A DNA stretch of 10,706 nt from Campylobacterota bacterium (GCA_034717975.1 JAYEMF010000108.1:1-10706), one strand, 5' to 3'. Counted from the stretch's first letter, positions 203-10,578 are shown. Notes: generated by a model from the sequence alone, not told the origin. A program made the numbers and translations.

Positions 203-1015
203 ATGTATGAGACAGATAAGCCGGAAAGACGAAACTTTTTATTAAAGATGGTACACACCATTGGCTATGGAGCATTCGGGGCTATTGCCTGGGGTGCCTA
301 CCTGAGCCAGGCACAGGCAAAGCAGTTGATCCTGCGGCCGCCTGGTGCCCTGAATGAAAAAGAGTTTGTCTCCACCTGCATACGCTGCGGGATGTGCGTC
401 GAAGTCTGCCCATATGATGCACTGAAACTCTCTACCATCTCCGACCAGATCTCTATTGGCACCCCCTACTTTACCCCAAGGGAAGAGGCATGTCATATGT
501 GTCCTGATATCCCCTGTGCATCCACATGCCCTACCAGGTCGCTCGATCTAGACCTGTTACGCATTGACGATAAACTCCATATAGACAATGCAAAAATGGG
601 ACTGGCTACGATCAACACCAAGACCTGTCTTGCTCACCTGGGGCTTCAGTGCACCATGTGTATCCGTGCCTGCCCTCTGGCTGACAAAGCGATCGTCCTG
701 ACCAATGAGCGTAATCCCCGTACCGATATGCACGCTTTTTTAAAACCTGTGGTCGATCCCGACTACTGTACCGGATGCGGCATGTGTGAACGGGCCTGCC
801 CGACCAAAGTCGCCTCCATCTATGTTCTGCCGCTCTCTGTCTCTACCAGTGATGTAGGTGAACATTATATAGTCGGGTGGGAAGAGGAGGATGAGAAGCG
901 ACTCAAAGAGTGGACAAGCGATGTCATTCTGGATCGGACAGAACGCAACAAAAAAAGTGCCCTGGACAATGTCAATGATGTCGATGGCATCCTCAAAGGG
1001 ATCTATGATGAGTAG
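203..1015 (+). CDS. napG: NapG/MauM family ferredoxin-type protein (periplasmic Fe-S subunit of the NapGH quinol dehydrogenase)
   Basis: Tat motif ERRNFL, LRPPGA motif, and four Cys clusters (CIRCGMCVEVCP, CHMCPDIPCASTCP, CLAHLGLQCTMCIRACP, CTGCGMCERACP). C-terminal GEHYIVGWEEEDEKRL resembles Campylobacterota NapG. SD upstream. Confidence 0.92.
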   Translation: MYETDKPERRNFLLKMVHTIGYGAFGAIAWGAYLSQAQAKQLILRPPGALNEKEFVSTCIRCGMCVEVCPYDALKLSTISDQISIGTPYFTPREEACHMCPDIPCASTCPTRSLDLDLLRIDDKLHIDNAKMGLATINTKTCLAHLGLQCTMCIRACPLADKAIVLTNERNPRTDMHAFLKPVVDPDYCTGCGMCERACPTKVASIYVLPLSVSTSDVGEHYIVGWEEEDEKRLKEWTSDVILDRTERNKKSALDNVNDVDGILKGIYDE

Positions 1016-1835
1016 ATATCTTTACAAACACCGCTTTTCAATCGCACGAAGAGTCGTTCAAATCCTTTTATTAACCGCTTACTTCGGTGCCAATGCCTAT
1101 GGCTGGAAAGTTGTTATCGGCAACTTCAGCAGCGCACGCTATTTTGGCCTCATCCCGCTCTCCGACCCCTATGCCACTCTGCAGAGCTTTTTTGCCGGTG
1201 CCGTGATCGCTGCCGATGTTCTCGCAGGCGTTGCCGTTGTACTCTTCTTCTATGCCGTCATAGGCGGTCGATTTTTCTGTGCATGGGTATGTCCTGTCAA
1301 CATCATCACCGAAAGTGCCTCATGGCTTAGAGAACGGCTGCGTATCCCTGCCAAAAGCGATGCTCCCCTCCTGAGCCGTCATATCCGTTACTGGATCATC
1401 GCACTGAGCCTGTTCCTCTCCTACCTCTTCTCCGTCGCGGCCTTTGAGATGATCAGTCCCATCGCCATCACCCATCGGGGGATCATCTTCGGGTTTGGTT
1501 TCGGATGGGTATTTCTTGTCGCCATTTTTCTCTTCGATCTCTTCTCGCAAAAATACGGGTGGTGCGGGCATCTCTGCCCGCTTGGCGGGTTTAATGCCAT
1601 TGTCGGTAAATACAGCCTTATCAAGGTCGTCCACGATACCGACCGGTGTATCCATGCCGAGGCCTGCCTGAGAGCCTGTCCGGAGGTAGAGGTACTGGAT
1701 ATGATCGGCAAAGCCAGCCGGCCGGTTACCCAGATGGAGTGCATCAAGTGCGGACGCTGTGTAGAGGCGTGCGACAGCCACGCCCTAAAGTTTTCAATTG
1801 TCTCCATGACGAGACAGATACGAGGTGAACCATGA
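1008..1835 (+). CDS. napH: NapH/MauN family membrane-bound ferredoxin-type quinol dehydrogenase subunit
   Basis: Several hydrophobic segments, two CX3CP motifs (GGRFFCAWVCP, GWCGHLCP) and a C-terminal ferredoxin domain (CIHAEACLRACP, CIKCGRCVEAC). Start placed at ATG 1008 (AAAGGG upstream, 8-nt overlap with the napG stop) rather than 891; ATG 1005 is also possible. Confidence 0.92.
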   Translation: MSRYLYKHRFSIARRVVQILLLTAYFGANAYGWKVVIGNFSSARYFGLIPLSDPYATLQSFFAGAVIAADVLAGVAVVLFFYAVIGGRFFCAWVCPVNIITESASWLRERLRIPAKSDAPLLSRHIRYWIIALSLFLSYLFSVAAFEMISPIAITHRGIIFGFGFGWVFLVAIFLFDLFSQKYGWCGHLCPLGGFNAIVGKYSLIKVVHDTDRCIHAEACLRACPEVEVLDMIGKASRPVTQMECIKCGRCVEACDSHALKFSIVSMTRQIRGEP

Positions 1836-2779
1836 GACTCTGCTTCCTGATTGCCGTGATCTTTTTAGCCGTTAGCATGGCCAAAGAGATCACTCCCTAT
1901 CGCTACATCGAGGCAAGCCATCCCGTGACAGACTTCGTCAAAGCAGGCGACACCATAATCATCGGGACGGAAGAGGGAACGATCGACATCTATGATCTGA
2001 AAAGTGACAAACTGATCGACCAGATAATCCTCCCCAAAGTGAAAGATCTCTGGGGTGATGATATGCGCCCTCTGATTTTCAGTGTCGACTATCTGAATGG
2101 CAGACTACTTTTCGTGGCACGCATGTTCAGCGGCTGGAGGGAGTTCTACCTCTATGAAGATAAAAAGCTGACAAAACTGCTCGATGAGTCTCAAAAACTC
2201 AGTCTGCAGGAGGTGAAATTTGTCGATGCCGATACTGCCATCATCGGTATGATGAGTAACGAGCTGATGCTCTATGATCTGAAAGCGAGAAAGATCATCT
2301 ACCACAAGCAGCTCAATCAGGCCAGTCTTTCCGACATTGTTCTCGATGAAGAGAAAAACTTTCTCTTTACGGCAGACGAATCACCGCTGATCTATAAAAT
2401 TGATGTCAGAAGCGGCGAAATTCTGGAGAAATACAAAAAAGGCAACAAACGGGATATCTTCTCCATCGATTACAAAAACGGCATGCTTTTGAGCGGCGGG
2501 AAAGACAAGCGGGTCATCCTCTATAAAACACCCTCAGAATACACGATGACCAAAGGAGACTTTTTTATCTACAGTGTCGCCCTGAATCCCGATGCCACCC
2601 TGGCTGCATTCGTTAAAAACGAAGAGGATGATATCTCCATTGTCGGCACCGATAACCTTAAAGAGCGGTACCTTCTCAAAGAGCACAGACAGACCATCCT
2701 CAAAATAGAGTTTCAAACCAAAAATGAACTGATCACCGCCGATGAAGATAAAGCTTTGCGGTTTTGGAGATTAGACTAA
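1832..2779 (+). CDS. napL: Periplasmic WD40/beta-propeller protein, NapL-like
   Basis: Sec-type signal peptide (MRLCFLIAVIFLAVSMA) and WD40-like blades (IIIGTEEGTIDIYDL, LLSGGKDKRVILY, LITADEDKALRFWRL). ATGA overlap with napH; position in a napGH operon fits NapL. Confidence 0.72.
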   Translation: MRLCFLIAVIFLAVSMAKEITPYRYIEASHPVTDFVKAGDTIIIGTEEGTIDIYDLKSDKLIDQIILPKVKDLWGDDMRPLIFSVDYLNGRLLFVARMFSGWREFYLYEDKKLTKLLDESQKLSLQEVKFVDADTAIIGMMSNELMLYDLKARKIIYHKQLNQASLSDIVLDEEKNFLFTADESPLIYKIDVRSGEILEKYKKGNKRDIFSIDYKNGMLLSGGKDKRVILYKTPSEYTMTKGDFFIYSVALNPDATLAAFVKNEEDDISIVGTDNLKERYLLKEHRQTILKIEFQTKNELITADEDKALRFWRLD

Positions 2780-2788
2780 GGAGAAGAG

Positions 2789-3214
2789 ATGAACACACCC
2801 ATAAGAGCCATAACACTGATGTTGATTAGTACACTGCTTTGGGCTGCTCCCGAAGCGGACAAAGAGAAAACAGAGCTTAAAAAGGTGATGAAGTCGTTTG
2901 CTTCGGCACTCGAACTGATCCAGCACGGTATTTTGTACAATAAAACCGATGAAATGCATAAGGGTGCCCAACGTCTGAGGAACAGTGAACACAAATTTCT
3001 TCAGCGGCACGGCGATGCACTGGTGCGGCATATGCCTGACAATCCGGAGTTTGCACAAAGCTATGCCAAATCGACCGCTAAACGGATCCGAAACTATACC
3101 GACAGACTCAACTATCAGCTGGGAACGGCAAACGACTACAGCCAGATAGCGACTACCTATAACCACGTTTTGCAAGAGTGCGTAGGATGTCACCAGAAAA
3201 TTCGTCAGTGGTAG
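2789..3214 (+). CDS. Periplasmic monoheme cytochrome c, class II (cytochrome c'/c556-like four-helix bundle)
   Basis: AAGGAG SD, signal peptide, helical composition and a single C-terminal heme motif CVGCH (3179-3193) six residues from the end. Confidence 0.8.
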   Translation: MNTPIRAITLMLISTLLWAAPEADKEKTELKKVMKSFASALELIQHGILYNKTDEMHKGAQRLRNSEHKFLQRHGDALVRHMPDNPEFAQSYAKSTAKRIRNYTDRLNYQLGTANDYSQIATTYNHVLQECVGCHQKIRQW

Positions 3215-3261: not shown

Positions 3262-4377
3262 TTAAAATGTCACTTTGAAGTTCAGATAATAGGTCTGGCC
3301 AAGATCGCCGAACTCTGTACCGCTCTCTCCGGCGTAGAGCATTGCTCCTATGCCAAGTGTCATATCATCTGCCAGTGAGTAGTCGATAAAAGGCGAAAGG
3401 TAGAAACTCTCATCATCCATACTCACCATGCCAAAAAGCGATCCGTAGAGCAGTGCGTCAAACTCATACCCTGCACTTATTCCAAGATAATCATATGAAC
3501 CCATCAGGTTATCCCTCAGACCGGACTCCTCTCTTTGCGCAAGATCAAATGTTTTGGAGCTGTGAAGCCACTCACCTACTAACATAAGTGAGTTTTCAAA
3601 GGCATAGTCGGCACCGACGATCGCCTGGAAGAACTCCTCATTCAAGCCTTTGTCCTCAAACCAGCCGCCCTCAGACCTCACTTCGATACCACTCCCGAAG
3701 AGTTCGCCTTCAAGCTCATAGCCGATCATCGTAACATCATCGGCACTTACCACATCCAGACCGATATCGACTACTTCCAAGTACCCCTTCAGCCGTCCGG
3801 CATACTTGAAGCTGCTATCTTCTCTTTGTGCCGCGACGGCGGTTAGTTCACTCAACTGACTTGATGCATAGGTATAGGCCAGAGCAAAGACACCATAGAC
3901 CTCATCGGGTTCAAGCGCCAGCGGATTTTTGGGATTGAAAAGGTCCGTCGGATTCCAGATACGCCCCACTCCCATACTCACTTTTTGCAATCCAAGGGCG
4001 ATGCGATGCTTCTCGTCCACATACCCGCCATAAAGTCGGTAGAGCTGGGCATAATACTCCCCTTCACCATAATTATGTCTCTCGGTCTGGGTCTTGAACG
4101 GAGTATCGGTACTACTTGCGCTGAAGTAGCGGTACTCTGTACTCTGAATGTACCCACGCCCCAGATAGTTTTCCAGATCGCCGATCGCCGTAACAAACCA
4201 CGCACCCTCTTGCAGATGGTCAATGATCCTGAAACGGTTGTAGTTGACCAGAACCCGCTCACCGCTATCGATAAGTGCCCGAGAAAGTGTAAAGTTGCTG
4301 TTCTCGAAGGTGATCTCATGCTCAAGCGCCGAAACACTCATAGCAAAAAACACCCCGATCAACAGCGTGCGTATCAT
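3262..4377 (-). CDS. Putative outer-membrane beta-barrel protein associated with the ABC system
   Basis: Signal peptide (MIRTLLIGVFFAMSVSA), alternating aromatic/Gly beta-strand patterns, GVGRIWNPTDLFNP motif and C-terminal YYLNFKVTF typical of BAM substrates. ATGA overlap with the ATPase stop. Confidence 0.72.
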   Translation of the reverse strand: MIRTLLIGVFFAMSVSALEHEITFENSNFTLSRALIDSGERVLVNYNRFRIIDHLQEGAWFVTAIGDLENYLGRGYIQSTEYRYFSASSTDTPFKTQTERHNYGEGEYYAQLYRLYGGYVDEKHRIALGLQKVSMGVGRIWNPTDLFNPKNPLALEPDEVYGVFALAYTYASSQLSELTAVAAQREDSSFKYAGRLKGYLEVVDIGLDVVSADDVTMIGYELEGELFGSGIEVRSEGGWFEDKGLNEEFFQAIVGADYAFENSLMLVGEWLHSSKTFDLAQREESGLRDNLMGSYDYLGISAGYEFDALLYGSLFGMVSMDDESFYLSPFIDYSLADDMTLGIGAMLYAGESGTEFGDLGQTYYLNFKVTF

Positions 4378-5063
4378 GATCGTACCGTATCTTCGACAAT
4401 CTCACCGTCACGCAAAACGATGGAGCGGCGCGCCTTTTCGATGACCAGCGGGTCGTGGGAGGAGAAGATGATGGTCACCTTCTCCTCTTCGTTGAGACGG
4501 CGCATCAGCGCCATCAGCTTCTCACCGTTTGCCGTATCGAGATTGGCGGTGGGCTCATCGGCAAGAATGAGCTTGGGCTTGCTCGCTACCGCACGGGCCA
4601 CGGCGACACGCTGCTGCTGTCCGCCGCTGAGATGATCGGGGAGTTTGTTAAGGTAAGCATCGATATCAAGCTCTTTGGCCACCTCCATCACCCGGGCATC
4701 GCACTCGCTCTGCGGATAACCCGAGAGGCGCATGACATACTCGATGTTCTCTTTTACCGTCAGGACTGGAATAAGGTTGTACGCCTGAAAAACGAAACCG
4801 ATATGCTCGCGCCGAAAGAGCGCCAGGTCACTTTCGTCCAACGCGGTGATCTCAGTCCCCTCCAGATCGACTCTCCCCCCGCTTGGACTGTCGAGTCCAC
4901 CAATGATATTTAGCAGAGTCGTCTTACCACTGCCACTGGGACCGGAAATGACAATGAACTCCTCTTTGCCAATGGAGAGATCGACTCCTTTAAGAGCATT
5001 GCTTTCGCTTTCGCTCCCTTCGTTAAATACCTTTTTCAAGCCACTGATCGTTAAAAAATTCAT
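4374..5063 (-). CDS. ABC transporter ATP-binding protein (LolD/MacB-like)
   Basis: Walker A GPSGSGKT, Q-loop GFVFQAYNL, signature LSGGQQQRV, Walker B LILADEPT, H-loop SSHD. Start ATG 5063 has AAGGA about 8 nt upstream; the alternative is 5084. Confidence 0.93.
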   Translation of the reverse strand: MNFLTISGLKKVFNEGSESESNALKGVDLSIGKEEFIVISGPSGSGKTTLLNIIGGLDSPSGGRVDLEGTEITALDESDLALFRREHIGFVFQAYNLIPVLTVKENIEYVMRLSGYPQSECDARVMEVAKELDIDAYLNKLPDHLSGGQQQRVAVARAVASKPKLILADEPTANLDTANGEKLMALMRRLNEEEKVTIIFSSHDPLVIEKARRSIVLRDGEIVEDTVRS

Positions 5064-5097
5064 CTGAGGTTTCCTTATCTCCATTTTATCTATTTTA

Positions 5098-5134
5098 GAC
5101 CTGATTATTGTCTCCCCGGCACAATAATCAGGTC
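5098..5134. repeat. Perfect 14-bp inverted repeat overlapping the permease stop codon
   Basis: GACCTGATTATTGT (5098-5111), a 9-nt loop, then ACAATAATCAGGTC (5121-5134). Confidence 0.85.
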
Positions 5135-6354
5135 ATATCGTTTATGGATTGGATGGGATTGCGCTTTTTCAGGGTACGGATCGGGATGACCGTAGCTGCC
5201 AGCGTCGCCAGCAGTACGCTGATAAAAGAGCTGGTAAAATACTCCTGCTTGAGGATCGCGTGAATGCTCGAATCCATCCCGAAGATAGCGAAAGCATCGC
5301 TCAAACCGGAGAGGTCCAGCCCATACTCTCTGAAGTACCAGAGCAGGCCGCCGCCGACTACTGCCCCGACGATATAGCCGCTCATCGTGATGAGCAGGGA
5401 TTCGTAGATGATAAGGCGAGTGATATCCCGAAACTGCGTCCCGATGGCCATCATGATACCGAACTCCCGCACCCGCTCGAGCACCGAGACCAGTACCACG
5501 CCAAAGATACCCAGCGTTGCAACGATAAAGATAAAAGCGGAGCTGATCTTGTTATAAGTTTCCATGAACGCTTCGCTCTCGTAAAGCGTCGGATAGAGCT
5601 CCTTGTAACTATAGACAGCCAGGTTCCCGTCTTGCAGCTGCTTCTCGATGGCTTCTTTTATCGTAAAATCGGCATTTTGATCATCCAGCAATATTGCGAT
5701 CTCTGTCACGCCTTGGATACCCGTCAATGCACGCAACCGGTCTATATCCATCAGCAATCCACTGCCGTCTATCGCCATATTGTTCGTCTTGATAATGCCG
5801 CGTACTTTCAATGCGACGGAAACCACTTCGTTGTTCACATCCTGCATCGTGACAATCACTTTTTTACCGATCTCCACCTTGAGTTTTCGGGCCAAACGGT
5901 AGCCTATGACCGCCCCGCGCTTTTCAAAACTGTATTTACCTTTGATCATAAAGTTTGGCAAGCCGGCATGTTCTGCTTCGCGATCCTGCTCAACACCCAT
6001 TACACTCACCCCCTGTGAGTAGCCTGCCGTAGCAATAAGCCCACGCTGGCTGACCCGTGTCACATAACTGCTGATTCCCGCTTGTGCGTCAAGAAGCGGA
6101 ATGATCTGCTCAGGCGCATCGATATGGTACTTGATATTGTTGTCCGATCGAAACTCTTTGTGCTGAATCGAGACGGTCCCGCAGCCAGTTTTAATGGAAT
6201 TTTGGGTGATCTGAACCATCATCCCCTCATACATCCCCTCCATCAGCAGCAAGCCGATCAGCGAGAGACTGATCATCAGGGCGATCAGGACGGCACGTCC
6301 CTTGCGACGGACAATATGCAACAGTGCCATTTTGAAATAGAGCATCTCAGACAT
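5128..6354 (-). CDS. ABC transporter permease, FtsX/MacB/LolE-like (type VII)
   Basis: One N-terminal TM helix, a large periplasmic domain (AVIGYRLARKLKVEIG), SVLERVREFGIMMAIG motif and three C-terminal TM helices. 8-nt overlap with the upstream permease. Confidence 0.9.
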   Translation of the reverse strand: MSEMLYFKMALLHIVRRKGRAVLIALMISLSLIGLLLMEGMYEGMMVQITQNSIKTGCGTVSIQHKEFRSDNNIKYHIDAPEQIIPLLDAQAGISSYVTRVSQRGLIATAGYSQGVSVMGVEQDREAEHAGLPNFMIKGKYSFEKRGAVIGYRLARKLKVEIGKKVIVTMQDVNNEVVSVALKVRGIIKTNNMAIDGSGLLMDIDRLRALTGIQGVTEIAILLDDQNADFTIKEAIEKQLQDGNLAVYSYKELYPTLYESEAFMETYNKISSAFIFIVATLGIFGVVLVSVLERVREFGIMMAIGTQFRDITRLIIYESLLITMSGYIVGAVVGGGLLWYFREYGLDLSGLSDAFAIFGMDSSIHAILKQEYFTSSFISVLLATLAATVIPIRTLKKRNPIQSINDMT

Positions 6355-7588
6355 AACGTATCGCCTCCGTCGGGGTAAAGCGGTTGATCATCACAATAGG
6401 ATAGATCACCGTGAGCAGATTAAGCAGGAGCATCAACAGCATCTCAGCCATGATCTTGGAGGGATTGTACTCCGTAGGGATCGTCATATCGGCAACCATG
6501 TTGTACTGCTTGTAATACTCCTCGACATCCATATCTACCATCGAGCTGAACTCGATGGGGTGCTTCTCATAATAATCACTTGCATAAGCGCCTGCTGCTC
6601 CGCCGACACCGACACTGAGTATTCCGAGGATGAACGCCTCGATGAGCAGCAGCCCCATCACCTGAGACGGTGTCGTCCCGATGGCACGCAGCACCCCGAT
6701 CTGTCGGATGCGGGCATAGACGGAGAGGAAAGCGAAGATGGCAATGACGAAGAAGATAACTATAAAGAAGATTCCCAGGGTGATGTAGCCGAAGATCTCG
6801 TCGATCTCCATCGCCAGAATGAGGTCTTCAAGGGTCTCTTTGTAGTTTTTCACATCCAGAGCTTCACCTACTGCTTTTTGCACATCAGCGGTCACGGCAT
6901 CGATCATTTCAACGTCGACCGGTGATATGATGATATGTGTCGCAATATTCTTACTCTCCATCACCGTGTCGAAGTAGGCCTTATTCACAAAGGCCGAACC
7001 GTTATCGAACTCATATAGCTTCGTTTTAAAGAGCCCCTTGATGAGAAGGTTGTCTGCCGCGAAGGAGTAGTCCGCTCCCGTAGAGATAAACGAGAGTCTG
7101 TCGCCTACTCCCAGCTTCAAACGCTTGGCCAGTTCGACCCCGAGGTAGAGGGCGTTTGTGTCATCACTGTTTAGGTACTCCCCTTCGACCAGTGAGCTTT
7201 TCAGCCGCGACACCTCCGCTTCGTTCTCCGGTTCGATGGCGGTGAACATCCCGCCGATGGACTGTTTATCACTCACATAGAGAGCAAAGGCTTCAAACCG
7301 TACTGCATGCGCCTTGATCCCTTCAACGTTCTCAAGTGCCTCTCTTGCCGTCGCGACATCGAAGATCAGGCTCTCAAAGCTCGGTTCATCTTCAAACTCA
7401 CGGTTCGTTACCTCCATATAGCCGGGATAGATCTCGACGCTGGAGCGGATAAGCTGGTTGTGACTGCCGTCACTGATGGCGTTGGCAAAGATAAAGAGCA
7501 GTGTAGAGAAGGCACTGAGCAAAAAGGTAACGATGGAGCGTTTTTTGTGGGTGAATAACTGCCGAAGCGCCATCTTGACGAGTATCAT
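6347..7588 (-). CDS. ABC transporter permease, FtsX/MacB/LolC-like (type VII)
   Basis: Same architecture: LGVELAKRLKLGVGD, SVYARIRQIGVLRAIG and C-terminal PTEAIR. ATGA overlap with the upstream gene. Confidence 0.9.
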   Translation of the reverse strand: MILVKMALRQLFTHKKRSIVTFLLSAFSTLLFIFANAISDGSHNQLIRSSVEIYPGYMEVTNREFEDEPSFESLIFDVATAREALENVEGIKAHAVRFEAFALYVSDKQSIGGMFTAIEPENEAEVSRLKSSLVEGEYLNSDDTNALYLGVELAKRLKLGVGDRLSFISTGADYSFAADNLLIKGLFKTKLYEFDNGSAFVNKAYFDTVMESKNIATHIIISPVDVEMIDAVTADVQKAVGEALDVKNYKETLEDLILAMEIDEIFGYITLGIFFIVIFFVIAIFAFLSVYARIRQIGVLRAIGTTPSQVMGLLLIEAFILGILSVGVGGAAGAYASDYYEKHPIEFSSMVDMDVEEYYKQYNMVADMTIPTEYNPSKIMAEMLLMLLLNLLTVIYPIVMINRFTPTEAIRYV

Positions 7589-8310
7589 CGGCTGTACCTT
7601 TTAAGTGCACTCTTGGTAAAACGTGAATCATCAATCTCCACATCAAAATCAACCTCATCCATCGTCACGACAGTCTTTCGGTTCTTCTTGTCTGAGGGGA
7701 TCAACGTCATAACGGCAGGGAAATAACGGGACCCGACAACCTTGACATCGCTGTAGTAGAGTATACGCTGTTCGATCTCATCTTCATCGTAGTAGACAGC
7801 TTCCAGAGGAACAAAATGATCTTTCGTCACCTTCATAACGATCTTGCCCCAGACTACGGCGGCTTCCTCTTTCGGAATCAGGGTAAGGATAAACATCTTT
7901 TCATCCTCCCCGCTAAGCAGCGTATTGTAGTCCCTGACAATGGAGCTCTCTTTGGCCATATCGTCATTGGTAAAATCGCTTCCCATCCAGCTCTGCATCA
8001 TCATGGAACTCGGTATCTTGATGATCTTTTCTATCTTGGGAACATACTGCCACATTGTCGTGTTTACTTTTAAGAAGGTGATGCCTCGATCTTTTTTGGG
8101 GTAGAGGATCTTAATGAAACTCATCTCGTTGCCGCGGTTCCAGCTCTCCATCTTCATCGTCCGTTTACCCCTCGATGTCGTAACACTCATAGTGATTTTG
8201 GAGTAACCGCTATCGCTTTGCAGATTGTGTTCGACATTTTTGATGATCTCATCGGCGGTGATCGCCAACAGGGAAACCGAAACAAGCAGGAGGAGAACAA
8301 GCTTTTTCAT
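7585..8310 (-). CDS. Outer-membrane lipoprotein-sorting (LolA-like) periplasmic protein
   Basis: Signal peptide plus motifs YPKKDRGITFLK, MWQYVP and SWMGSDFTNDD characteristic of the LolA-like family. ATG 8310 fits the AGAGG SD better than GTG 8313. Confidence 0.85.
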   Translation of the reverse strand: MKKLVLLLLVSVSLLAITADEIIKNVEHNLQSDSGYSKITMSVTTSRGKRTMKMESWNRGNEMSFIKILYPKKDRGITFLKVNTTMWQYVPKIEKIIKIPSSMMMQSWMGSDFTNDDMAKESSIVRDYNTLLSGEDEKMFILTLIPKEEAAVVWGKIVMKVTKDHFVPLEAVYYDEDEIEQRILYYSDVKVVGSRYFPAVMTLIPSDKKNRKTVVTMDEVDFDVEIDDSRFTKSALKRYSR

Positions 8311-8313
8311 CAC

Positions 8314-8410: not shown

Positions 8411-8962
8411 ATGGCACTATGCGGAATTGACGAAGCTGGTCGCGGACCCATCGCCGGATCACTGGTGATGGCCGGTGTTATTCTAAACGAGCCCATTGAT
8501 GGGCTGAATGACTCAAAAAAGCTGACCGAAAAAAGACGCGAGCTCCTCTTTACCCAGATCCTCTCTTCCGCCACTTATCATATCGCGCACTTCTCTGCAC
8601 AGCAAGTAGATGAACATGGCATCTCTAAATGTCTGTCAATGGGCCTTGAGGCGATCAAGAAGCATGTCGAATCCGATGATTACCTCTTTGATGGCAACTC
8701 TACCTTTGGCGTCAATGGTCTGCGCACCATGATCAAAGCGGATACTGAGATTCCCGAAGTGAGTGCCGCTTCCATCCTGGCCAAAGTGACGCGTGACCGT
8801 GAGATGGTCAGGCTCTCATCCGACTATCCGGAGTACGGTTTTGAAGGGCATAAGGGCTACGGCACGCAAGCCCACGTTGAAGCAATTAAAACACATGGCT
8901 ACTGTGACATCCATCGCAAAACTTTTCGGCTCAAAGCACTTGAACCGACACTTTTTGATTAG
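8411..8962 (+). CDS. rnhB: Ribonuclease HII
   Basis: GIDEAGRGPIAG, DSKKL, DGN, KAD...SAASILAKVTRD and HKGYGT motifs. Start ATG 8411 follows AAGGAG; the 8225 start of the ORF track overlaps the opposite gene. Confidence 0.96.
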   Translation: MALCGIDEAGRGPIAGSLVMAGVILNEPIDGLNDSKKLTEKRRELLFTQILSSATYHIAHFSAQQVDEHGISKCLSMGLEAIKKHVESDDYLFDGNSTFGVNGLRTMIKADTEIPEVSAASILAKVTRDREMVRLSSDYPEYGFEGHKGYGTQAHVEAIKTHGYCDIHRKTFRLKALEPTLFD

Positions 8963-8995: not shown

Positions 8996-9086
8996 GTCTC
9001 ACAAGAGACAAACTTTAGTGCCATAGCGGCTAGCGTAGCCAAATGGACTTCTGACACTAAATGTCGATACTACCGTTGCTAAAGCA
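8996..9086. other. Palindrome-rich intergenic element (REP-like remnant or structured RNA)
   Basis: Stems: GTCTC/GAGAC (8996-9009); TTTAGTGCCA/TGACACTAAA (9014-9023/9052-9061, one mismatch); GGCTA/TAGCC (9028-9040); GACA/TGTC (9053-9065). GTAG lies on the - strand at 9070-9073. Confidence 0.4.
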
Positions 9087-9124
9087 TAAGTGTGGTGTTG
9101 CTCATCTGGCGTTCAAAATAGTGG

Positions 9125-9139: not shown

Positions 9140-9367
9140 ATGAAATCAATCGAACATATCAACAATGCACTCAAGGACCTCGATGCGGAAGTAGAGAAAA
9201 TTTTGATGGACTGGTCCATCAATCTGACAGACAAAGACAACCTGATGCTCCCACTTCTGCAACAGAAAAAAGTGCTACAGCAGACCCTTGAGGACCTGAC
9301 CTATCTCAAAGAGAATCCTCCTACCCCAAATCAACCCTGCGGTATTTCAAAATACCGGGATGATTAA
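9140..9367 (+). CDS. Small hypothetical protein (75 aa, helical hairpin/coiled-coil-like), probably leaderless
   Basis: Own promoter, heptad-like Leu pattern and C-terminal PPTPNQPCGISKY. It fills the gap with no competing gene. Confidence 0.75.
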   Translation: MKSIEHINNALKDLDAEVEKILMDWSINLTDKDNLMLPLLQQKKVLQQTLEDLTYLKENPPTPNQPCGISKYRDD

Positions 9368-9549
9368 TTCAAAAACCACGCCAGCCAGCTCTTCTTCTCT
9401 TTGAGAGTATATGGCTTTTTACGTTCATCCACAAAATCCGGGTCACCCTTTCCAAACTGTTCTTTGGAGACACGGTCCAGATGTTTTTTAGGCTTCTCTT
9501 CTATATAGCCGTTATCTTTTGATGTTATCGTTCCATGAGGAATACACAT
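9364..9549 (-). CDS. Small hypothetical protein (61 aa), third gene of the KCG-peptide/DoxX unit
   Basis: ATG 2 nt after the DoxX stop, with a GGGAG SD inside the last DoxX codons. Highly charged sequence with N-terminal MCIPH and C-terminal WLAWFLN. Confidence 0.6.
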   Translation of the reverse strand: MCIPHGTITSKDNGYIEEKPKKHLDRVSKEQFGKGDPDFVDERKKPYTLKEKKSWLAWFLN

Positions 9550-9551
9550 AA

Positions 9552-9995
9552 CTACTCCCTCTCTTCAAGAAAATGGTCAACACCAAATTTTCCGCCACCG
9601 TGTGTTACCAGCGCAAAAAGCATCAACATATAATAAAGCGGTATCTCAAAACCGTTATCACCGGCACTGAAACCATTGCCAAGATGCACTGTAGTGATCG
9701 CCACAATCATAACGACAATCAGTGGAATGGAGATCAGGCGGGTAAAAAGTCCAAGTGTCAGTAAAACAACACCTGCCAACTCTGTTGATGCTGCCATGTA
9801 GGCATTGAGTGTCGGCAGCGGTATTCCAATGGAACCAAACCAATCGGCCACCGCACCGATATCGTCCCACTTATGCATGGCAGGGCTATAAAATCCGTAA
9901 GCCAGAATCAGACGAAGAGAGAGGAGTGAGAGATCTTTTCCCTTCTCTAAAAGGGGTGCTAGAAAATTGGTTACTTTAAGAAGTTGGCACTGCAT
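9552..9995 (-). CDS. DoxX family membrane protein (HvfX-like, RiPP/metal-associated)
   Basis: LLSLRLILAYGF...KW, ELAGVVLLTLGLFTR, VH...NGFEIPLYY and GGGKFGVD motifs of DoxX. ATG 9995 has AAAGGA 6 nt upstream and is preferred over TTG 10016. Confidence 0.88.
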   Translation of the reverse strand: MQCQLLKVTNFLAPLLEKGKDLSLLSLRLILAYGFYSPAMHKWDDIGAVADWFGSIGIPLPTLNAYMAASTELAGVVLLTLGLFTRLISIPLIVVMIVAITTVHLGNGFSAGDNGFEIPLYYMLMLFALVTHGGGKFGVDHFLEERE

Positions 9996-10059
9996 GACAG
10001 ATCCTTTAGTGTACAAATAACAGCAACCTATGACGTTGCACTTATCACTACACTAAACA

Positions 10060-10081
10060 ATCGGTTGCCGAAGCACCCGAT
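10060..10081 (-). terminator. C(UUCG)G tetraloop hairpin after the peptide gene (partial terminator or mRNA stabiliser)
   Basis: On the - strand: AUCGG-G-UGC-UUCG-GCA-A-CCGAU, 7 nt after the TGA, followed by a weak UGUUU tail. Confidence 0.6.
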
Positions 10082-10088
10082 GGTTATA

Positions 10089-10409
10089 TCAGCCGCACTT
10101 ACCGGCGCCGCATTTGCCTTTCACTGGCGGAGGTGTTTTCTTTTCACCACCGCATCTGCCAGGATTCATTGCTTTACCTTCCCCGCATTTGCCCGCAGGA
10201 GATTCCATTTTTTCTCCACCGCATTTGCCCGGCTTCATTGCTTTAGCTTCCCCGCATTTGCCCGCAGGGGCTTTCATTGTTTCTCCACCGCATTTACTGC
10301 TTTGCTGTGCACCGCACTTCTCACCCATTCCAGCCATCGCAGAAGTGGCGCCTAAACCTGTAAACAGAGCAGCCCCGACTAGCAGTGCCATCAGATTCAA
10401 CTTTCTCAT
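10089..10409 (-). CDS. Secreted low-complexity Cys-repeat peptide, HvfA/oxazolin-type RiPP precursor-like
   Basis: AAGGA SD, Sec signal (about 26 aa, ending SAMA) and eight (K/R)CG motifs ending KGKCGAGKCG. Adjacent to a DoxX gene. Confidence 0.85.
   Translation of the reverse strand: MRKLNLMALLVGAALFTGLGATSAMAGMGEKCGAQQSSKCGGETMKAPAGKCGEAKAMKPGKCGGEKMESPAGKCGEGKAMNPGRCGGEKKTPPPVKGKCGAGKCG
10140..10295 (-). repeat. In-frame 69-bp (23-aa) tandem repeat, about 2.3 copies
   Basis: KCGGETMKAPAGKCGEAKAMKPG / KCGGEKMESPAGKCGEGKAMNPG / RCGGEK. The repeat is also visible at DNA level (e.g. TTCCCCGCATTTGCCCGCAGG occurs twice). Confidence 0.85.
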
Positions 10410-10520
10410 TACATATCCTTTTATCTTATACTTGAGATATCCAAATATTGTATCAAGCTATTATAAATAGTAATATAATTATAAAATCTAATTTGTAGAA
10501 TTTAACAATAAAAAGATGTT
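10410..10520 (-). promoter_or_regulatory. AT-rich promoter region of the KCG-peptide unit
   Basis: The - strand has extended -10-like TGATACAAT (10447-10455) and further TATAAT hexamers upstream. Confidence 0.5.
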
Positions 10521-10578
10521 AGGGGTAGAGTGAAACAGACTCGTTCTCAGATAGTCTGGATATAGAAAACAAAGGGCT

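Follow-up and report, generated by a model that had tools for sequence, protein, structure and literature searches.

The window, by which is meant the whole stretch of 10,706 nucleotides that was analysed, is one entire contig of a Campylobacterota genome that is 99.91% complete and lies in 149 contigs. Its minus strand carries, in order, a 106-aa peptide ORF, a DoxX gene and a 61-aa ORF (Table 1). A first-pass annotation made from the DNA alone had described a signal peptide followed by eight (K/R)CG motifs, a DoxX gene 93 nt after the peptide stop codon, a further ORF of 61 aa and an AT-rich promoter region belonging to the unit, and all of these features were recovered: the DoxX start codon, an ATG at 9995, leaves a gap of exactly 93 nt, the 61-aa ORF starts 2 nt past the DoxX stop, and the AT-rich region fills the 122 nt before the peptide gene. 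The junction between DoxX and the peptide gene is bridged by contigs from all four brine-metagenome runs of a single study, one of which may be the source of the genome.

Table 1. Coordinates of the peptide-DoxX unit and of its neighbours within the window
Feature	Position	Strand	Basis or remark
HvfA-like precursor peptide	10089-10409	-	ORF, NF050137, homolog alignment
DoxX/HvfX-family membrane protein, 147 aa	9552-9995	-	PF07681, NF050144
Conserved small protein, 61 aa	9364-9549	-	Homologs; no Pfam or NCBIfam match
Intergenic RNA hairpin	10006-10056	-	Folding, compensatory changes
AT-rich upstream region	10410-10531	-	21% GC; extended -10-like TGATACAAT at 10447-10455
Convergent 75-aa ORF, synteny marker outside the unit	9140-9367	+	Shared neighbour in relatives
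rnhB	8411-8962		Shared synteny

The hairpin abuts the DoxX ribosome-binding site and folds with a z of -2.7. A single search pattern recovered it in the window and in 9 of 12 loci of genus g8, and compensatory changes were seen in 5 of 18 pairs, with some covariation among the nine sequences folded; it may serve in processing or tuning.

Outside the unit, the convergent 75-aa ORF and rnhB mark the same site that holds a full cluster in the related genus g7, and the ORF is found no more than three genes away from 21 of the 57 peptide-DoxX pairs described below. It is conserved, has no family match, ends in a PCGISKY motif and belongs to a cluster present in loci from 29 genomes, mostly adjoining rnhB. 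Between rnhB and this ORF, positions 9024-9121 hold a short element that is probably a repeated intergenic sequence, since other contigs in the sequencing runs match it. Elsewhere in the window, positions 203-3214 on the plus strand read by eye as the end of an operon for a nap-type nitrate reductase, with ferredoxins resembling NapG and NapH and a WD40-like protein of NapL type, and then a small cytochrome c'-like protein with one heme (Pfam E 0.006). Positions 3262-8313 on the minus strand encode an ABC system that includes an ATPase, two permease-like proteins, a LolA-like protein (PF17131) and a probable outer-membrane protein that matches no Pfam family.

The KCG-repeat peptide

All eight cysteines of the peptide lie in KCG or RCG motifs. 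The HvfA-family domain model NF050137 matches at 33.9 bits, over its cut-off of 19.5; the HvfA equivalog NF050188 gives 16.3 bits, far under its cut-off of 95, and no Pfam family is matched. Residues 1-26 form a predicted Sec signal, recognized by eye from a basic start, a hydrophobic core and A-M-A at 24-26, and A26 is invariant across 25 peptide homologs. The core that follows comprises 80 low-complexity residues with the eight motifs, which stand singly at spacings of 5-14 residues and form no CxC or CxxC clusters; cysteine makes up about 10% of the peptide. No other frame under 400 aa in the genome has three or more such motifs. A related-locus search from the peptide returned gammaproteobacterial loci only, and an Atlas search gave best feature matches of 0.88-0.89, which serve as leads only, with an Atlas model pLDDT of 0.32.

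Bacterial metallothioneins such as SmtA/BmtA and MymT are small, unmodified, Cys-rich and probably disordered until metal-bound; they are cytoplasmic, have dense CxC/CxxC clusters and match a family profile. The window peptide is likewise small and Cys-rich, is predicted to be unmodified and is probably disordered until metal-bound, but it differs from the metallothioneins in its signal peptide, its isolated KCG motifs, its want of a Pfam match and its descent from a RiPP precursor family.

DoxX and the 61-aa protein

The DoxX protein matches PF07681 (E 1e-18) and the HvfX model NF050144 (131 bits against a cut-off of 80), and it is predicted to be all-helical (model pLDDT 92.6). Across 51 sequences the polar residues K42, E72, R86, H104, E117 and D140 are invariant, and no cysteine is invariant or 90% conserved. 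The structure that it matches most closely is that of the chaperone NACHO/TMEM35A (Z 11.8, rmsd 3.2, 114 aligned residues), which is a lead only, because that Z lies below the caution level for helical bundles. Foldseek gave no hit at E <= 0.001, the VKOR rows standing at TM 0.22-0.32, and a sequence search of solved structures gave nothing significant.

The first-pass annotation had suggested that the peptide might be kept reduced by DoxX, a role that would make DoxX a quinone-linked reductase acting on the cysteines of the peptide. The two genes are paired in 57 loci and have common promoter boxes in genus g2, and the invariant H104, E72, R86 and E117 could hold a cofactor; however, with no conserved cysteine, with a closest fold in NACHO/TMEM35A rather than in DsbB or a cytochrome, with VKOR a weak match, and with DoxX genes that often stand without a peptide, the suggestion is unsupported and we consider such a reductase quite unlikely.

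Because 31 of 110 DoxX loci were classed as peptide-less (one of them a broken full cluster), DoxX is not dedicated to the peptide. Twenty of the 31 lone DoxX genes directly precede a gene for a glutamate-synthase-like (GltB-like) flavoprotein, and in the outgroup genome G286 the gene for this flavoprotein comes after a full cluster; from the lone loci and the arrangement in G286 it follows that DoxX also exists independently of the oxidase and of the peptide. Its likely role is that of a membrane helper under shared regulation, acting on the peptide or the metal and carrying out no thiol-disulfide chemistry itself. The GltB-like gene after a lone DoxX (for example L132:630-2381) encodes a 583-aa FMN protein with an N-terminal hydrophobic stretch, and this arrangement is a second context in which DoxX is conserved.

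Names of the DoxX homologs point to the family Sulfurimonadaceae. Homologs of the 61-aa protein, for which no Pfam or NCBIfam match was found, occur in 35 of 201 genomes of this family and in 10 genera, and invariant blocks, MCIPH at the start and GDPDFVDER in the core, run through the 18 that were aligned of 33 homologs. The gene is genuine and conserved; of its 38 matches, 15 are no more than 5 kb from a DoxX, and we propose that it is an accessory and optional member of the same stress unit.

Absence of the maturation genes

As in the window, a KCG-repeat secreted precursor is found with an HvfX-family DoxX both in the oxazolin system HvfABCX of nontypeable Haemophilus influenzae, where the precursor carries a Sec signal (PMC11252979), and in the EGKCG captophorins fontiphorin and gonophorin (PMC13097082). 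What the window lacks by comparison with HvfABCX is HvfB and HvfC, that is, the DUF692 oxidase (MNIO) and its DUF2063 partner; it also differs in having proline in two Cys 5-mers and an extra 61-aa gene, and relatives of the window's genome carry the full peptide-MNIO-partner-DoxX arrangement, in one genus at the same chromosomal site.

The first-pass annotation had seen neither maturation gene at the locus and had proposed that profiles be run against the whole genome. Neither is present at the locus, and across the 149 contigs PF05114 (DUF692/MNIO) and PF09836 (DUF2063) gave no match each; tblastn with 45 ORFs of relatives gave best E values of 0.02 for the 23 MNIO ORFs and 0.007 for the 22 partner ORFs. 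The negative result with PF09836 has power, since the model recovers four of the five partners tried from the family at E <= 1e-5. The peptide is present in all three genomes of the window's genus and an MNIO in none, and the two genus relatives carry the same peptide-DoxX pair in different surroundings. With HvfB and HvfC missing from locus and genome alike, 5-thiooxazole, which takes about 4 Da from each Cys and absorbs near 305 nm, is therefore not expected: the locus does not qualify as a producer of captophorins and probably does a similar job minus the modification.

Distribution in the family

Among the 201 family genomes, HvfX (NF050144) exceeded its cut-off in 87, an MNIO was matched in 15 (14 over cut-off), and NF050137, a model that misses many divergent peptides, was matched in 56. 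The 110 DoxX loci classed, taken from the over-cut-off DoxX places listed, comprised 57 peptide-DoxX pairs (a KCG peptide at most 400 nt upstream of DoxX with no local MNIO), 31 lone genes, 10 spaced loci, 9 full clusters and 3 contig-edge loci, counts in which one full cluster was dropped by the gene caller (G040), a broken full cluster was entered as lone (G178) and at least one spaced locus is spurious (G050). The pairs lie in 56 genomes, of which G010 holds a full cluster plus a separate pair and 55 are MNIO-negative (54 from the 201-genome sample, plus G002). The survey of MNIO-free pairs that the first-pass annotation had recommended thus found them in 54 of 201 family genomes and 8 genera; nine of the MNIO-negative pair genomes are single-contig and closed, and DUF2063 was absent from all five of the closed pair genomes tested for it. 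Contig G114:C4 ends in a truncated MNIO that is indistinguishable from a contig-end artefact. The MNIO-free pair is the commonest form in the family, nearly four times commoner in the sample than the full cluster, and for the majority of family members such automatic names as 'oxazolone/thioamide-modified RiPP' or 'RiPP maturation protein' are probably incorrect.

Precursors without an MNIO have been noted before, in 67 of 2583 precursor-bearing closed genomes, and called rare; the authors considered that MNIO-less Buf_EGKCG precursors may be active unmodified or may have lost their function (PMC12452194), so that the idea of orphan precursors acting unmodified is already published as speculation. 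The available part of that paper gives no analysis of lineage, DoxX linkage, selection or substrate for these orphans, which here represent the majority state of a family; among the rows listed in its genome table, none of 16 labelled Sulfurimonadaceae is an MNIO-less Buf_EGKCG precursor, and some labels look unreliable. Taxon names were not found in the supplement of PMC13097082, and a search mainly of freely accessible papers found no account of MNIO-free peptide-DoxX pairs in Campylobacterota.

Origin of the MNIO-free pair

Genus g7 displays both forms of the locus between the same flanking genes, G048 and G084 carrying peptide-MNIO-partner-DoxX, and G008, G060 and G072 carrying peptide-DoxX, minus exactly the MNIO and its partner. 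In a phylum sample of 301 genomes, eight outside the family match NF050137, six of them with an adjacent MNIO, one (G449) with an MNIO-free pair and one with a lone peptide. Loss is likely to have been the direction of change, since the site occurs in one genus both complete and stripped of the maturases, which are mostly retained in other families; repeated loss from an ancestral full cluster is the simplest reading. In a quick tree the Campylobacterota MNIOs form one clade relative to three gammaproteobacterial MNIOs and, some exceptions apart, those of the same genus or family mostly fall together. The DoxX tree, likewise quick in method (151 columns), intersperses full loci with MNIO-free ones; it has many open forks and is poorly resolved, the window's place included, and no formal loss count is claimed.

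Selection and substrate drift

For the peptide, dN/dS was 0.04-0.31 in 19 of 22 hand-picked pairs of MNIO-free genomes, the other 3 being saturated; for DoxX it was 0.01-0.11 in 16 of them, with 6 saturated. Most aligned cysteines were kept. Comparisons with the window's genome, at near-saturated synonymous divergence, gave 0.07 and 0.19 for the peptide and 0.11 for DoxX. Both genes are under purifying selection, a result that weighs heavily against a further possibility raised in the first-pass annotation, namely that close relatives all hold the full cluster and that the locus is the silent or decaying remnant of a recent deletion. The window promoter does lack the regulator boxes of its relatives, and some relatives have lost a single cysteine or are down to 2-4 (G029, G087, G192), but purifying selection at such divergence extends to the window's genome, the reading frames and ribosome-binding sites are intact, the hairpin is conserved and the MNIO-free pair recurs in 8 genera, all of which makes a remnant highly improbable.

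FonBC, a Lys-Cys MNIO whose substrate range has been tested, is reported to reject every Cys 5-mer that contains proline and to demand Gly or Ala next to the cysteine on its C-terminal side (PMC13097082). Proline occurs in the Cys 5-mer at 25 of 362 sites in MNIO-free peptides (in 5 of 8 genera) as against 0 of 161 in MNIO-linked ones. Counting every kind of site that FonBC disfavours, the figures are 62 of 362 in 56 MNIO-free peptides and 4 of 161 in 24 MNIO-linked peptides (0 of 94 for those within the family), a comparison whose rules come from one gammaproteobacterial enzyme, whose kin are not independent and which was chosen after other composition tests. In the window peptide proline falls in the Cys 5-mer at two of eight sites, PGKCG and PGRCG, both of which violate the rules, and six still fit them. 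Such drift off the substrate rules matches the pattern that release from enzyme recognition would predict.

Two other compositional signals were set aside. Methionine enrichment as compensation (4.7% versus 1.8% at first) was driven by genus g2 and vanished once outgroup full-cluster peptides, with up to 12% methionine, were added; an even number of cysteines, as a sign of disulfide pairing, was rejected at 40 of 56 versus 13 of 24 peptides, outgroups included.

Drift of this kind also bears on whether the peptide is modified in trans, as the first-pass annotation had offered as its second option, either by an MNIO pair that falls in an assembly gap or by a Tat-exported pair of GMC oxidoreductases. 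The 149 contigs leave room for a gap, six of the eight window motifs still obey the MNIO rules, G010 shows that a full cluster and a separate pair can share a genome, and GMC genes lie within three genes of 17 of the 57 pairs, some with a common promoter box. An MNIO is nevertheless missing from all three genomes of the genus and from nine closed genomes that hold the pair, the peptides have drifted off the substrate rules, and the GMC pair lies on another contig in the window's genome and is missing beside most pairs, so that modification in trans is very unlikely. A constant substitute enzyme adjoining the peptide-DoxX pair was looked for and not found. The first option of the first-pass annotation, an enzyme-free system, stands in its main part, carried by family spread, closed genomes, selection and substrate drift, and falls in its proposal of reduction by DoxX; the enzyme-free state of the locus itself we regard as highly probable.

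Metal, redox and regulatory context

In vitro, unmodified HvfA binds about 2-3 Cu(I), and unmodified HvfA from E. coli is fully disulfide-bonded, with four disulfides (PMC11252979); metal binding by a disulfide-bonded peptide would therefore be blocked unless it were reduced. Free thiols are plausible in this family, since DsbB occurs in only 8 of its 201 genomes. Two of those eight carry an MNIO-free pair; DsbB is found in none of the 15 MNIO-positive genomes, and a lack of DsbB was on these counts rejected as the cause of MNIO loss and is permissive at most. In the window's genome DsbB and VKOR were not found, DsbD is present, and L273:1468-2370 encodes a DsbG/DsbK-like CPFC protein of thioredoxin fold, so disulfide formation may still occur.

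The bufferin system BufABCD of Caulobacter vibrioides likewise joins a secreted Cys peptide to doxX, and its proposed role is periplasmic copper buffering; it differs in having a folded DUF2282 precursor and in that the MNIO and partner (BufB/BufC) are required for copper protection and doxX is dispensable (PMC11626156), whereas doxX is what the window locus keeps. Beyond the pairs, other KCG-repeat proteins come after CopA (G003, G045, G165, G195) or CusA (G009, G061), all in MNIO-negative genomes, and one precedes ccoN.

Two candidate regulator boxes recur before the peptide genes of relatives, and neither was found in the window promoter. A Crp/Fnr-like palindrome precedes 21 of 54 peptide genes, as against 0.37 in shuffles, and also precedes lone DoxX and YgaP/HD-domain genes; genome-wide it gave 3 and 7 sites versus 6 and 3 for the control, with no clear enrichment. 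The other box is a direct repeat, TACACA-N5-TACACA, that stands upstream of 12 of the 54 peptide genes, every one of them in genus g2, and of none in shuffles. In G127 one of its two sites precedes the peptide gene and the other a copper-resistance multicopper oxidase; in G165 three of seven precede the peptide gene, DoxX and a homolog of the 61-aa protein, and the other four have no copper link. By sequence the repeat resembles the core of CrdR (10.64898/2026.06.29.735229), the regulator in the CrdRS-type copper regulon of Helicobacter pylori, for which paired AC-rich promoter boxes are characteristic.

These surroundings also invite a reading in which the peptide, left unmodified, buffers sulfur or redox state in the periplasm as a sink for persulfide, polysulfide or oxidants, within a DoxX stress regulon. 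It would account for the palindrome and the genes that share it, and for neighbours that comprise Crp/Fnr regulators, a metallo-beta-lactamase-fold protein, the GltB-like flavoprotein, the GMC pair and DsbD. Rhodanese, SQR and persulfide dioxygenase are never constant neighbours, however, the palindrome is without clear genome-wide enrichment and the KCG module recurs by CopA, CusA and a Cu/Zn efflux permease; even with the link between M. tuberculosis DoxX, SseA/SodA and oxidative stress (as cited in PMC11252979), we judge this reading unlikely.

Proposed function and significance

The reading that we favour, and hold to be probable with some reserve, is an enzyme-free operon of HvfA/HvfX type whose peptide binds soft metals, mainly Cu(I), through periplasmic thiolates. 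The peptide is likely exported unmodified because the operon lacks the MNIO and its DUF2063 partner. After cleavage of the signal, its free Cys thiolates would bind soft metal ions, mainly Cu(I), in the periplasm, DoxX may assist in handling the peptide or the metal in the membrane, and the 61-aa protein would join the same stress unit in some genomes; the unit as a whole might be induced by metal stress.

A broader proposal, which we put forward tentatively and with less belief than doubt, is that the Sulfurimonadaceae have repeatedly reverted a RiPP pathway to an enzyme-free system, a secreted and metallothionein-like thiol peptide together with a DoxX that loads, unloads or recycles it. If so, the peptide-DoxX pair would be the functional core of captophorin clusters; the literature counts captophorins among the largest classes of RiPP. 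Thiooxazole formation, which consumes oxygen, would then be an addition that protects the thiols from oxidation and is dispensable in low-oxygen, sulfide-rich cells whose periplasm is mostly without DsbB. At stake are the benefit of turning Cys into thiooxazole over a plain thiol and the job of the DoxX gene. Since the family offers natural pairs with and without the maturases, in one genus and at one site, as well as closed genomes that hold no more of the cluster than peptide and DoxX, the two questions can be tested directly.

Other KCG-repeat proteins

An MKCGAGKCG module is grafted onto other proteins of the family (L005, L007, L014, L016-L019, L021, L024, L028, L032 and L035), many of them in MNIO-less genomes. 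Its carriers include lipoprotein-like proteins encoded directly downstream of CopA or CusA, a membrane protein encoded ahead of ccoN and a cytochrome of c type ahead of an SO_0444 Cu/Zn permease, and the module looks like a portable metal-binding tag. Secreted proteins at L008, L010, L011, L020, L026, L127 and L153 have KCG repeats on either side of more tightly packed cysteines, such as CxxCxxCxxxxC or runs of CxC, and these clusters look closer to true metallothionein domains. A Thalassotalea peptide (L164:3297-3785) with no adjoining MNIO within 7 kb has 15 KCG motifs and is followed by a response-regulator-like gene.
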